Shown here piece after piece: positions 48,001-54,000 of a stretch of DNA of 64,000 bases. The stretch is taken from the NCBI RefSeq assembly GCF_053078305.1, contig NZ_CP166879.1; one strand, 5' to 3'. A program made the position numbers. The number at the start of each line of letters is the position of its first letter. The stretch's first letter is position 1.

Positions 48001-51000
48001 TTAATGTTTATATGTACTGTTACAGTGTTGATGAAAGGAGATAAAAACAATGTTCCCGGAGTACAGAGAACTGATTTCAGCATTGAAAGGAAATCATAAA
48101 CGCTTTGATTCTTTATTTGAAAAGCATAATAAACTTGATCACGAAATAAAAAGAATTGAAGATGAATTTGGTTCAGCGTATTCGACGAAAGTGGTCAGGC
48201 TGAAGCTTGAAAAACTTGAGATCAAAAGAGAAATCCAGAAAATCCTTGAAGATGAGTCAGAAAAGGGCGAACGGTAATCATAAACGGTATATTCAAAGAC
48301 GTGTTTTCTCTGTTTTATGAAAAAGGCACCGGGGGCTCCACGGTGCCTTTTAGCCTGTGTATAACGAAAAGGAGATCCTGTTCAGCGAACCAGATAGTTA
48401 AAAAAAGAATCTTTACGACGGTATCAAAGTTTTCGTGCAAAAAACATGATCAATATTAAATTCCAGTACATCCATATCCGATATAAATCTTTCCGTCTGA
48501 CAGATACAGATATGCCACGTAACGCATCCGCTGTTTCCGGCTGTGCCGGAGGATAATAACAGTCTGTAGCTTGTTTTGTTTCACTGAAGGTAAACTTTTT
48601 GTACGATAAATTCCGGGAATATGAAGTAAAAATCAAAACAATTCCGGGGGAGATATGCGTTTATTATATTCTGCTGTTGTCCTGATTTCAGCCTTATTGT
48701 TACAGGGATGCGTTGCTGCAACTGTGGTGGGTACAGCCGCTGTCGGGACAAAGGCAGCAACCGACCCACGCAGTGTCGGAACGCAGGTGGATGATGAAGT
48801 GCTGGAGCTGAGGGTCAGCAGTGCACTTTCAAAAGATGAACAAATCAGAAAAGAAGCACGCATCAGTGAGATTGCATATCAGGGACGCGTGCTGCTGATC
48901 GGTCAGTCTCCGGACCGTGAATTATCTGCCCGTGCCCGTCAGATAGCACTCGGTGTCGATGGGGTTCAGGAGGTCTATAATGAAATCCGGCAGGGGACTC
49001 CCGTCAGTCCGGTCATAATGGCTGGTGATGCCTGGCTCACGACAAAAATTCGTTCCCAGTTACTCACAAGTGCCCGTGTCAAATCATCCAGTGTCAAGGT
49101 GGTGACAGAAAACAGCGAAGTCTTTTTACTGGGCCTGGTTACAGAGCAGGAAGGGCGAGCGGCAGCAGATGTTGCCAGTAGGGTGAGTGGCGTGAAGCGG
49201 GTCACGACGGCATTCTCCTATATCCGGTGAAGGCAGGATCTGAGTTGCCTTTAGTGCAAATTTACGTTAAAAATCAGAAGAGCACGTTTCCGGGCCGTTC
49301 ATGCCACCACGTGAACATTCGTCGCGGAATACCGGAGACGTGCTCATTATAATAACCAATATACATAATTCCTCTTTGACACCCCCTGAATTCGGGGGAT
49401 TTTTTTGCCCGGGTATGTTCACTCACAGATAAAATCCCGGTGTACTCCGGATGTCGCTGCTGGTAAATAATCTGAGCTTTTATCTGTATGCAATGGTCAA
49501 AGATCGTGGCGTTAACATCCCCCGGATAGTTTTGTCTGAATCTGATTTTTCTTTTCAGGCAGAATGCCTGTCTGCCGTCCTGGTGTCAGAGTGTAATTTG
49601 CACAATACGGCAATTTGCCGTACAGTGTATTCAGGAGGTACAACTCATGCCATCTGCAACACAAACTGCCCGACTGGAAGCAAGGATCAGCACAGAACTA
49701 CATGCCATGCTGAAGCGCGCTGCAGAAATCCAGGGGCGCACAATGACCGATTTTATCATTTCTGCCGTTCAGGATGCGGCCCAACGTGCTATCGAACAAA
49801 CCGATATAATCCGACTGTCCCGGACAGATCAGGAAATTTTTGCTCAGGCATTACTGTCACCAACAGAGCCGAACGATGCGCTTAAACGGGCCTTTAAACG
49901 CCGTAATAATATGCTGTACACAAAATAAATATAATGTTTCAACTGACACCATTTAACAGCACATATGACAGAACCTCATTTTTATGTGGCTCTGATGCTC
50001 TGGACCGTTACATAAAAGAGCATGTCACACAGGATATTCGACGACGCATCGCGGCCTGTTTTGTCGCTGTAGATAACGATCATAATATCATCGGATACTA
50101 TACGTTATCAGCGGCCAGTATATTATTAACTGACTTACCTGAGCATTTGAGAAAAAAGCTTCCGCGATATCCCACTATTCCGGCTATTCGTATGGGACGA
50201 CTGGCAGTAAGTCTGTCATCAAAAGGAACGGGGCTTGGGGGAGCACTTTTAGCTGATGCGCTATATCGTGCATACACATCTGAAATTGCAGCATATGCGC
50301 TTATTGTTGATGCAAAAGATGACACGGCAGTCGCATTTTACAAACATTATGGCTTTATGGCGTTCCCGGAGTCCGGAAGAACTTTATTCATGCCATTGGC
50401 ATCATTATCCACAATAAAATAAACAGAATAAATCAGGGAAATACGGTGCTTGTGGCAACGTCAGCCCACGAAGTTAAATGTTAACGGGCAACACGGCGGC
50501 AGGAAATCTGCCGCCGGATTGTTGTGAAGGCTGACCACACTGCGCGCCCTTTTTCCTTGATTATCCTGCTCAGTCCAGTGGTCTGTTCCGGATGGGGCTG
50601 TGTTGCGTACTGAATTAATGTGATTACGGAATACCATAATGCCGTATGTACGCAAGATTATTTACCAGCCGCCGGCAACCCCTGCACCAATCGCGGTGTT
50701 ATGAGATGAGTCCCAGGAGATGTTGAGGCGTATATTGGTATTACGTGATGTTTTATACTGAATGCCTGCGGCCACAGCATTAGCGTTCTGATAGTTACCC
50801 ACGCCGATCCCGTATGAAAAAGAATTTTCAGCCACATAGGGGATGGAGGATATTGCCGTCACTCCGGCGATGCCTGCATTAAGTCTTTTTTCTGCCCGTT
50901 CAATTTTATTGCTCAGGTTTCTGAATTTGTTGTCGGTATAACGATTGGCCTCTGACAGTGCCCGGCGGGTACTGATATCGCTGTAGGCTGTTGCCTGTTT

Positions 51001-54000
51001 CAGTGTCAGTGAATCCCCGGTGTCACTGTATGCCTCTGCTGTTGCCAGAGTTTCTGCATCACCTGCGATGCGTGCCTGGCGTTCGGTCATCAGTAATCCG
51101 TCAGTACGGTTATTGATGTCGGTTTCTTTCTGGTCAGCATAAGTATTCGCACTGACCAGTGTTCTTTTGTTGTTTTCATCGCTGTGCGTTCTGGCAGCAG
51201 CCAGAGTTGCAGTATCGCCCGCGATGCGTGCCTGGCGTTCGGTCATCAGTAATCCGTCAGTACGGTTATTGATGGCGGTTTCTTTCTGGTCAGCATAGGT
51301 ATTCGCACTGATCAGTGTTCTTTTGTTGTTTTCATCGCTGTGCGTTCTGGCAGCAGCCAGAGTTGCAGTATCGCCTGCGGTGCGTGCCTGGCGTTCGGTC
51401 GTCAGTAATCCGTCAGTACGGTTATTGATGGCGGTTTCTTTCTGGTCAGCATAGGTATTCGCACTGACCAGTGTTCTTTTGTCGTTTTCATCGCTGTGGG
51501 CTCTGGCTGCAGCCAGCGCTGCTGCATCACCTTCTGTTCGGGCCCTGGTTTCAGTTATGACCTGACCAGAGAGGGTATTAAGCTGATTCTGCAGGTTGTT
51601 TGTTGATTTTATTCTTTCTCCAGCTTCCCGGTTAACAGCACTGGTCATCTGCATCAGATTTACCGCATCATGGTCATCTTTCCCCTGTGCCAGATTTGTG
51701 ATGCGGCGTTTCAGTGTGTCAGAGCCGACGGATACGATATTGTTTCCGTTAGCACTGGAATGACTGCCCAGTGCCACGGAGTCGTTCCCGGTTACGGACG
51801 ATGTCAGACCTATGGCAACAGATGAATCACCGTTAATTCTGGTGGCATTACCGAGGCTGACGCTGTAACCATCCAGCACAATATCTTCGCCCACTTTTCT
51901 GATCAAACCGGAAGCTTTTACCGTGGAGGAATTACCAATAACAATGTTGTTATACCCTCCCTCCACGGAATTACTGTTACCCACAACCAGACTGTTTGAC
52001 TCTGATGTGACAGTATTTTCACTGCCGTAAATATTTCCGGAGAATCGTGTTGTTGTATTGTTTTTTTCTCCGGTGATGTTCGGTGTGTTGACATCAGCAT
52101 GTGCTGTCTGACAGACGATGGCGGCTGACAGCATAGCTGCAACTGTTAATGAATAAGAAACGTGTTTTTTTACTTCGGACATTATTTTTTCCTGCCAGAT
52201 TATGACCTTTCAGGTCCCGGTATCCTGGATAAGCGCGGCAGACAGGAGACCACCTGCCTTTCTGAGGACAGGATGAGAAGCATCCGGTGTGATGGCGATG
52301 ATTAATTCATCATATGACCAGGGAAATTTTTCTGTTGCTGTACAGAGTTATTTGTGGTGGGCATACCCCTGATGCATCAGATTACGGAAATGTTTTTCCG
52401 GAGAAGAGAATACATGTCTTTTAATCCCACAGATGAACAGTACGCCATTATTAACTGGCAGGGGCAGCAACTGGTTGTGAATGCGTTTTCCGGCACAGGG
52501 AAGACGAGTACGCTGGTACAGTTTGCCCGGGCCAGTCCGGACAGCCGTATGCTCTATCTTGCCTATAACCGGGCAATACGTGATGAGGCAGAGCGTAAAT
52601 TTCCCTTTAACGTGGAATGCAGAACGTCACATCAGCTGGCGTATGCCCGGGTTGGAAGACACTACCGTCATCGGCTGGTTCCGGGATTACGTATTACTGA
52701 TGTGGCGAGAAAGCTGAATACACGATACTGGGCTCTGGCACGGGTGGCAGGGACGGGGCTGAATCACTTTATCTGTTCTGCCGATGCGGTACCGGGCCTG
52801 CATCACCTGCCGGATAAGGATGAGATGCGGGGTGTTCCGCCAGCAGATGCGCTTCGGGCGGTGCAGTTGCTCTGGAACGAAATGAGCAACCCCGGGGGGA
52901 CGTTCCCGGTGACGCACGATACTTATCTGAAACTCTTCCAGTTGTCCGGTGCAGACCTGTCTCACCGATGGGACACTATCCTGTTTGATGAGGCGCAGGA
53001 TGCGAATCCGGTGACCACTGCTCTGGTTCTGGGGCAGAAGTGTCGGGTGATCCTTGTTGGCGATCGTTATCAACAGATTTACCGCTTTCGGGGTGCGAAT
53101 AATGCACTTTCCCATCCTGCACTGAAGAATGCGGACCGGTTGTGGCTGACACAGAGTTTCCGTTTTGGTCCGGCGGTGGCTCGCATGGCAAATCTTCTTC
53201 TGCAGCGTGAAGGTGAAACACGAGAGGTGAAAGGTTGTGGTGGTGATGATGAGGTATTGCTGAAATGCCATGCGCGTGAACATCTGCAGGGGCATTACAC
53301 GGTACTCAGTCGTACTGTCGCGGGTGTGATTGGTACTGCGCTGATGGCGGCAATGAAAGGGCAAAAGGTTTACTGGGTGGGGGGAATCGAAGGTTACAGG
53401 ACCGGGGAACTTGAGGATCTCTACTGGTTCCAGGTTGATATGCCGGAACGGATGCATTCAGACAGGCTGCGCCGGGACTACAGGAATTTTGAAGAATATA
53501 AATATATTGCAAAATCCACGAAGGATGTGGAGATGAATCAGTCCCTTCGGCTTCTGGAGTTGTGTTTTCCGTTACCGAAAAAACTGGAACTTCTCCGGCA
53601 GTATACGGTAACGAATGAGCAGGATGCAGATATCACTGTGTCAACGGCACACCGGAGCAAGGGGCTGGAGTGGCCGGTTGTAATGCTGGATGAGGATTTC
53701 CAGGATATCACGGATCCGCTGATGACGGAGGCTGAGCGTCATGATGAAACCTGTCTGTTATATGTGGCTGTCACCCGGGCCCTCAGGACGCTGGTACTGA
53801 ATGATCTGATGCACCAACTGGCAGAAGAACAGCAGAAAACTGAAGGTTACCGGGGGACCGGGTACGACATCTCAGGTCTGGTTCAGGAGAATGGGCATGC
53901 TTGAACGCCTGAAAAGGTTATTTCCTGTGAAGACAGAATGCTCTGATGTCCGGACGGATATTCCCGGGGAAACGGTGCCGGAGGGGTATTTTACACCATT

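Follow-up and report, generated by a model that had tools for sequence, protein, structure and literature searches.

The 64,000-nt stretch of contig NZ_CP166879.1 (RefSeq assembly GCF_053078305.1) analyzed here, referred to below as the window, carries a gene for a trimeric autotransporter adhesin (TAA) of the YadA-like family in the integrase-proximal part of a genomic island at the tRNA-Phe gene pheV. The gene lies on the minus strand at 50662..52182 and is an intact open reading frame (ORF) of 506 amino acids (aa) with an ATG start, the stop codon being included in these coordinates. The initial annotation of the stretch had placed a TAA with 156-bp tandem repeats at exactly these positions, and a single uninterrupted frame of 506 codons indeed runs from one end to the other. 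Outward from the tRNA gene, the order is tyrosine integrase, MobH/TraI-type relaxase, UvrD-like helicase, the adhesin gene, a TacA/GNAT toxin-antitoxin pair, and a paralogue of DolP, with the subAB genes further into the island.

Three Pfam domains were recognized in the protein: YadA_head (PF05658) at aa 117-142, YadA_stalk (PF05662) at aa 160-199, and YadA_anchor (PF03895) at aa 451-502, the last with an E value of 2.4e-8. The sole NCBIfam matches were models for trimeric autotransporters, all of them far under their curated cut-offs. By inspection, the N-terminus has a basic n-region (KK), the hydrophobic stretch LTVAAMLSAAIV and an AHA/DV motif. In a sequence search of the PDB, the head and neck matched Salmonella SadA (2YO0; E 2e-14), and the neck aligns residue by residue with the SadA neck RRITNVAAGVNNTDAVNVAQM, including the RRITN…DAVN motif; the head also aligns to the YadA head (1P9H) and to BpaC heads. 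Within the distal stalk, at aa 368-445, three Y-x-D motifs spaced 15 residues apart are followed by a heptad-like segment, and the YadA stalk fragments 3H7X, 3LT6, and 3LT7 match aa 391-447. The anchor region has PDB matches to YadA (2LME; aa 418-499), AtaA (9VNJ), and Hia (2GR7); it is highly conserved and holds most of the invariant alignment columns.

An AlphaFold monomer model, built from a 20-sequence alignment, shows short and evenly spaced head strands across residues 35-153, an unbroken helix at 176-374, a second helix at 393-445, and C-terminal strands at 455-464, 467-479, 482-491, and 498-505. There is one low-confidence break within the helical span 176-445, and the predicted local distance difference test score (pLDDT) is below 50 over residues 1-31. 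The first helix spans all three repeat units, over which the pLDDT is 73-85. Four beta-strands per chain, as in the roughly 70-residue anchor of the type Vc autotransporter family, are therefore found at 455-505, and the head-neck-coiled-coil-stalk passenger of that family is found in the PF05658 and PF05662 matches, the SadA alignment, and the helix of the model. Overall, the protein has the canonical type Vc layout of predicted signal peptide, small head, neck, helical stalk of about 270 residues, and membrane anchor. The YadA head, stalk and anchor domains, the SadA and YadA structure matches, and the four C-terminal strands together bear out the proposed identity as a TAA; trimerization and adhesion of the 506-aa protein are what its family membership would predict.

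The stalk contains a tandem array. Tandem Repeats Finder (TRF) reported a period of 156 bp with 3.0 copies, 94% matches, no indels, and a score of 848 at 51044..51516, and an independent repeat finder returned three copies with a spacing of 156/156. When the gene was compared with itself, the best offset was 156, at which 296/312 positions were identical (95%). By comparison, 100 codon shuffles gave a mean of 0.373 (sd 0.009) and a maximum of 0.401, which places the repeat far outside what chance would give and shows that it is real. Between units 2 and 3, identity is 96.8% in DNA and 94% in amino acids; unit 1 shares 86-88% (DNA) and 81-83% (aa) with those two, and a degenerate fourth unit following unit 3 matches units 1-3 at 33-37% of aa positions. 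Exact in-register matches between units extend over at most 66 and 63 bp. The initially annotated array of three 52-aa units is thus present; its description as near-identical fits units 2 and 3 and is too strong for unit 1. The coordinates of these and other features are collected in Table 1.

Table 1. Features of the adhesin gene and of its surroundings. Positions are those of the window unless a related locus (L number) is given.
Feature	Position	Strand	Basis and remarks
Adhesin gene, complete	50662..52182	-	ORF list, Pfam domains, NCBI annotation of orthologues (98-99.8% identical); stop codon 50662-50664
Ribosome-binding site, AGGA	52190..52193	-	Read off the sequence; 7 nt 5' of the ATG
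Predicted Sec signal peptide, aa 1-29 (MSEVKKHVSYSLTVAAMLSAAIVCQTAHA / DV)	52096..52182	-	Sequence inspection alone
Head, aa 30-155, YadA-type left-handed beta-roll repeats	51718..52095	-	PF05658, PDB alignments, model
Neck and start of stalk, aa 156-185 (…LKRRITNLAQGKDDHDAVNLMQM…)	51628..51717	-	PF05662, SadA neck match
Stalk unit 1, aa 212-263	51394..51549	-	TRF, repeat finder, unit comparison
Stalk unit 2, aa 264-315	51238..51393	-	TRF, unit comparison
Stalk unit 3, aa 316-367	51082..51237	-	TRF, unit comparison; 5 nt differ from unit 2
Degenerate fourth unit and YadA-like distal stalk, aa 368-445	50848..51081	-	Unit identity, YadA stalk alignments
C-terminal membrane anchor, aa 446-506, four beta-strands, terminal GGW	50665..50847	-	PF03895, PDB, model
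G+C-rich hairpin, possible shared terminator	50489..50521	.	Inverted repeat between the convergent adhesin and GNAT-toxin genes
Island backbone: UvrD-like helicase, MobH/TraI-type relaxase, tyrosine integrase	52354..56483	+	NCBIfam, genome search
tRNA-Phe gene pheV, island integration site, adjoining yqgA/speC	56679..56754	-	ARAGORN, Rfam
Second YadA-like gene in related islands	L001 11204-13568; L002 5316-7421; L008 335-1612; L011 8872-10884		

In a megablast search of 5426 complete Escherichia coli genomes, the gene was found in 24, and all 118 matching places were chromosomal. Unit number, read directly or from alignment spans, was two in one genome, three in 12, and four in nine. The corresponding alleles measure 1365 bp (454 aa; two units, in STEC1585), 1521 bp (506 aa; three units, e.g., in JNEC-KY171, O22:H8 strain 154, and CFIAFB20190157), and 1677 bp (558 aa; four units, in 2012EL-2448, 2018-166, and FHI_NMBU_10). 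TRF gave copy numbers of 2.1 for STEC1585, 3.0-3.1 for the window and SCU-171, and 4.0 for 2018-166. The proteins align with clean 52-aa indels and are otherwise collinear and near-identical. The two units of STEC1585 match units 1 and 2 of the window at every nucleotide, so that window unit 3 is what is absent from an otherwise near-identical allele; unit 1 of the four-unit 2012EL-2448 allele is identical to window unit 1, and unit 3 of FHI_NMBU_10 is identical to window unit 2. Alleles therefore differ by gain or loss of whole units and by the shuffling of units. We rejected an assembly artefact as the source of the differences between two, three, and four units, as they occur in complete genomes with units that are otherwise identical. 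The expectation in the initial annotation that copy number would change adhesin length between strains is borne out by these intact alleles, which are also the outcome of the comparison of repeat number across isolates that it had proposed.

The array also changes faster than its surroundings. When the window is compared with O22:H8 strain 154, 4.7% of sites differ in the repeats and 0.95% in the flanks, approximately a fivefold difference. In the divergent allele lineage of P0057 (three units) and P0054 (two units), every unit carries the characteristic residues of that lineage. Both the faster divergence of the repeats and the presence of lineage-specific residues in all units are expected from unequal exchange and gene conversion among units.

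Signs of decay were found in four genomes, and they raise the question of whether the island carries the gene along as a silent or decaying passenger, one that lacks a current function and varies neutrally in repeat number. In SCU-171, an IS66-family insertion sequence truncates the 5' end of the adhesin gene (L008 3001-6832), and in JNEC-KY171, IS110/IS2 fragments part the gene from the helicase (L001 16713-19291). A 170-nt fragment is all that is found in A33, and a 58-nt remnant in 2013C-3033 (NZ_CP027323.1 3197715-3197772). The rarity of the gene among complete genomes and the lack of a promoter consensus upstream would also be compatible with such a passenger. By contrast, the frame is open over its full length in 21 of the 22 substantial copies, every change in unit number is in frame, and the seven translated alleles are all open. 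Outside the repeats, fewer non-synonymous than synonymous changes per site were found, with pN/pS values of 0-0.49 that rest on very few differences. Given, in addition, a good ribosome-binding site and the highly conserved anchor, we consider a functionless passenger very unlikely.

With regard to other signals in and around the gene, the hairpin between the adhesin and toxin genes (Table 1) scored as terminator-like on the plus strand. No T-run was found on its minus-strand side, and its role for the adhesin gene is therefore uncertain. An Rfam scan of 44000-57500 returned no match overlapping the adhesin gene. An A7 homopolymer is present at 52052-52058 (-), in the codons for G-E-K-N of the head-coding region, and there is an A6 run in the ribosome-binding spacer. 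These runs are too short for efficient phase variation to be expected, and no differences in the length of either run were found among the seven translated alleles.

Among named adhesins, the closest to the window protein is Saa, for which the gene of pO113 (NC_007365.1, 143552-145153) was used as the reference. In BLASTP, 402 columns align at 33% identity (E 2e-47). The two proteins are short TAAs (about 500 aa) that share their overall layout, both occur in subAB-associated E. coli producing Shiga toxin (STEC) and lacking the enterocyte-effacement locus (LEE), and both have a stalk array of a homologous module, …ARxxGD-x-TL-x-SANTY(A/T)(D/N)-x-K…. Saa confers autoaggregation and adherence to HEp-2 cells, and its size differs from strain to strain (PMC7247748), with saa variants 1-5 being cited in PMC3769853; the same kind of size polymorphism is seen here for the window gene. 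However, the head and N-terminus differ from those of Saa, as only aa 118-506 align, and the gene resides on a chromosomal tRNA-Phe island, whereas saa is carried by a large virulence plasmid of the pO113 type. The repeat units also differ, with 52 aa (156 bp) in the window protein vs. 37 aa (111 bp) in Saa, whose array has 4.8 copies of 111 bp. Each 37-aa Saa repeat aligns to one 52-aa unit, with a 15-residue gap opposite AAARTHSDENNKRTL. The difference in unit length arises because of this extra 15-residue segment, which places another (H/Y)-x-D motif precisely 15 residues ahead of Y-A-D, and the 52-aa unit can be read as a Saa-type module with one segment added.

Identity as Saa was rejected on the grounds of the 33% identity, the different repeat period, a separate 50%-identity cluster, and the lack of a plasmid copy. 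In an exhaustive cluster search of 1.84 billion representatives, the protein fell into its own 50%-identity cluster (P0121), with its next relatives at 42-50% identity. Relatives P0122-P0124 have diverged or degenerate 52-aa modules, and P0125, P0130, and P0132 have 37-aa modules, which in P0125 have been re-amplified to copies of 97% identity. Within the wider group, the stalk module has thus been amplified in tandem on repeated occasions.

The protein resembles YadA in its anchor, in the repeat type of its head, in its distal stalk, and in having Y-x-D motifs spaced 15 residues apart. It differs from YadA in that no equivalence to a collagen-binding head is evident and in its stalk with the 52-aa array. 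The YadA model NF033478 scored 111.2 bits against a cut-off of 750 and was rejected, as were the BimA and Ata NCBIfam models, whose scores were far under their cut-offs. Eib proteins (EibA, C, D, E, F, and G) are coiled-coil-stalk TAAs of STEC and other E. coli with a similar size (approximately 390-510 aa). Unlike the window gene, which is on an integrase/relaxase island, eib genes are located on prophages; EibD chains gave no PDB sequence match to the window protein even at E <= 10, and matches in phage records were limited to the C-terminal 150 residues, i.e., the anchor, at 36% identity. Eib membership was rejected on these three grounds. No plasmid copy was found in the DNA search of complete E. 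coli genomes, and in 72,556 plasmid records, the best matches covering most of the protein were only 35-39% identical. We therefore also rejected carriage by a plasmid or phage, there being no plasmid DNA copy and no close plasmid or phage protein relative.

The alignment to Saa, Eib, and other TAA families suggested with the initial annotation thus places Saa nearest (33%), with the protein being neither Saa nor Eib. Orthologues WP_040076810.1, WP_000005622.1, and WP_033811167.1 share 97-99.8% DNA identity and the same backbone position, have two to four units, and differ from the window gene only in unit number or order. No functional name for the orthologues was found in the databases searched, where all of them are labelled "YadA-like family protein". 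No name or test of the 506-aa protein was found in the open literature searched, with subscription journals outside its coverage. In papers on the subAB2 locus, pheV/pheU islands, and LEE-negative STEC genomics, the adhesin gene is neither named nor tested: in Steyert et al. (2012), a "YadA family protein" appears only as an entry among regions unique to strain EH250, and the account of the subAB2-2 surroundings by Funk et al. (2013) does not include the adhesin gene. As judged from the sequence comparisons, the protein represents an unnamed and distinct lineage that is distantly related to Saa.

The relationship to Saa and Eib raises an alternative role for the array, i.e., that the 52-aa units are repeated ligand-binding modules for immunoglobulin, complement regulators, or matrix proteins, and not a passive spacer, with copy number tuning valency or serum resistance instead of reach. 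There is precedent in Eib and UspA-type adhesins, as the immunoglobulin binding and serum resistance of Eib are attributed to its passenger (PMC7247748). No other part of the gene evolves as fast as the units, a pattern that would fit selection imposed by the host, and the unit is recognizable as a conserved module in the relatives at 42-50% identity. However, the solved EibD passenger gave no match, as noted above, and Saa, the closest named relative, is not shown to aid serum resistance (PMC7247748). Moreover, motifs general to TAA stalks (Y-x-D, ARxxGD) abound in the units, and these are found in many stalks without an assigned ligand. We therefore regard binding modules as an unlikely explanation of the array.

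The island extends over more than 56 kb inside the window, and its junction at pheV is annotated alike in L002, L009, and L010. The relaxase scored 210 bits with TIGR03760 (cut-off 161). The 4.1-kb block of helicase, relaxase, and integrase occurs in 23 complete genomes at >=98.6% identity (98.6-99.5%), in 22 of which the adhesin gene is directly upstream of the helicase; the 23rd is 2013C-3033, with its 58-nt remnant. The integrase-relaxase-helicase-adhesin module is located at pheV in the window, L002, L009, and L010, and at pheU in L001, L003, and L011, and some genomes have it two or three times (e.g., CFIAFB20190157). The placement at both tRNA genes and the multiple copies indicate recent mobility of a mobilizable island family. 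Inner cargo differs between islands that share the backbone.

The subAB genes of the window are found at 43450..44493 (subA) and 43011..43463 (subB; 239 bits with NF011801, cut-off 219). The gap between them and the adhesin gene is 6.2 kb, in agreement with the distance of about 6 kb given initially. Among the complete genomes, 15 have both the adhesin gene and chromosomal subAB2, seven have the adhesin gene only, and nine have subAB2 only (Fisher p ~3e-33, not corrected for shared ancestry). In other words, subAB2 is present in 15/22 adhesin carriers vs. 24/5426 genomes overall. In genomes with both, a distance of 9-110 kb separates them or they occupy different loci, and the 6.2 kb of the window is the shortest distance seen. 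In O22:H8 strain 154 and STEC1585, the 8-12 kb beside the adhesin gene is without subAB, and FHI_NMBU_10 has nearly the same local arrangement as the window, with subAB 99.5% identical, but carries a four-unit allele at pheU. The link between the adhesin and subAB is statistical and not fixed: the adhesin gene belongs to the integrase-proximal backbone, and subAB is variable cargo.

The near one-to-one linkage of the adhesin gene to the backbone block, with 22 of the 23 block carriers having the gene and the last a remnant, could mean that the adhesin primarily serves the mobile island, as an autoagglutinin that joins donor and recipient cells and favors mobilization, with host adhesion being secondary. 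The variation of cargo further in, and the occurrence of the module at pheU as well as pheV and in two copies in some genomes, also fit this possibility. On the other hand, a backbone that is 98.6-99.5% identical may owe the linkage to recent common descent, and no conjugation or mating-pair genes were seen beside the island backbone in the window. In addition, we know of no TAA that aids donor-recipient aggregation for island mobilization, which counts against this explanation. A primary function in island transfer is therefore extremely improbable. A broader version, in which the adhesin is no ordinary virulence cargo but a fixed part of the backbone of a mobilizable tRNA-Phe island family (with integrase, MobH-type relaxase, helicase, and DolP paralogue), either serving the element or forming a dedicated biogenesis pair with the DolP-like lipoprotein, and has its stalk length re-tuned per host, is also quite improbable. 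If it were true, gain and loss of units would re-tune the stalk on each entry into a host whose O-antigen or capsule differs in thickness.

We consider it probable that the gene encodes a type Vc adhesin of a Saa-related lineage, which gains and loses stalk units through its repeats and travels with the backbone of a tRNA-Phe island. As in other members of the family, three chains would form a 12-strand outer-membrane barrel, through which the passengers would be exported to fold as a lollipop with a head on a rod. This structure may mediate adherence to host surfaces and/or autoaggregation, as Saa does. Unequal recombination or replication slippage between units would add or remove whole units, and such changes stay in frame because 156 bp is divisible by three. 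The minimum for efficient RecA-dependent exchange in E. coli is about 25 bp, which is exceeded by the identical runs of 63-66 bp, and close tandem repeats also undergo RecA-independent slippage. Because the whole array is predicted to be helical, each unit would lengthen the rod by approximately 7-8 nm (52 residues at ~0.15 nm). Unit number could in turn alter how far the head reaches past the O-antigen or capsule layer, and it could also alter the antigenic surface of the stalk. The gene moves with the integrase-relaxase-helicase end of the pheV/pheU island, which delivers chromosomal subAB2 too in most carriers.

Several observations weigh against this interpretation. No sigma-70 consensus promoter was detected in the 171-bp upstream spacer (52183-52353). 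The AlphaFold model is of a monomer only and has low confidence (predicted template modeling score, pTM, 0.25; mean pLDDT 65.8), and it gives no trimer geometry or register; a hydrophobic-periodicity scan of the stalk for a coiled-coil register also showed no clear peak. The head bears only a distant resemblance to those whose ligands are known. Regarding copy number, nine loci were read directly; alignment spans were used to infer the values for the other 13 of the 22 genomes. One-unit forms of 402 aa exist among database proteins, all of them from draft or short-read assemblies, and these are unconfirmed because 156-bp units with 86-97% identity can collapse in assembly. Finally, an identical four-unit protein (WP_000005622.1) is present in unrelated isolates of Swiss and US origin; within lineages, unit number thus holds steady and changes only over evolutionary time, and the array is not a rapid phase switch.

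LEE-negative STEC are without intimin, and their attachment is only partly understood. The gene adds a fifth, uncharacterized lineage to E. coli TAAs, of which a 2019 review lists only Eib, Saa, UpaG, and EhaG as characterized (PMC7247748). Given the enrichment of subAB2 among its carriers (15/22) and the constant backbone, it is a reasonable candidate as a colonization factor and typing marker for subAB2-positive STEC. Many database entries for the adhesin are "partial", and calls of alleles and of presence or absence from draft genomes are unreliable because the 156-bp array breaks short-read assemblies or may collapse in them. The natural series of two, three, and four units provides a ready set for studying the effects of stalk length behind the O-antigen. 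Mechanistically, the adhesin is a familiar kind of object that holds little to surprise a specialist.

Several neighboring genes are worth noting. The DolP paralogue is full-length (48655-49230, +; NF008247, 297 bits vs. cut-off 184) and accompanies the adhesin gene in every locus with a long enough flank (L001, L002, L009, L010, and L011); a role as accessory factor in the biogenesis of the adhesin is possible. In several related islands, a second, different YadA-like gene of 394-425 aa with a Saa-like anchor (Table 1) lies in the interval from dolP to the main adhesin gene, and L001 also has a fragment of a BON-domain gene there. The second gene looks like the result of a segmental duplication of the dolP-adhesin module; the window has one YadA-like gene copy only. 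In the window, the same interval holds genes for a TacA-type antitoxin (DUF1778) and a GNAT acetyltransferase toxin (49647-50422, +), which are convergent with the adhesin gene. Also inside the island, a strong full-length match to the small RNA STnc100 (47733-47935, +; Rfam 137 bits, gathering score 47) lies just upstream of a DUF465 gene (48050-48277).

On its inner side, subAB directly adjoins a sialic-acid utilization cluster, the two together covering 35635-44493. The cluster includes a NanT-like transporter (828 bits vs. cut-off 604), an esterase, a porin of the KdgM/OmpL family, a NanM-like epimerase, NanR, and a sialate O-acetylesterase. Because SubB is a lectin that binds sialoglycans, the pairing of subAB with this cluster may be functional. 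The gap between nanR and subB is 1401 bp, which matches the 1400 bp of the subAB2-2 locus in Funk et al. (2013).

Further away, a filamentous-haemagglutinin-type exoprotein of 2981 aa with TIGR01901 and TIGR01731 repeats is encoded at 11345-22582 (-), beside a 579-aa ORF that is a possible TpsB transporter and has no NCBIfam match. This locus is a second large adhesin or a system resembling contact-dependent inhibition (CDI) on the island. In the second island copy of CFIAFB20190157 (L010 1-1302), genes for Mov34/MPN-family and SAVED-domain proteins suggest an anti-phage module of the cyclic oligonucleotide-based antiphage signaling system (CBASS) type, so that very different cargo lies behind the shared island backbone.

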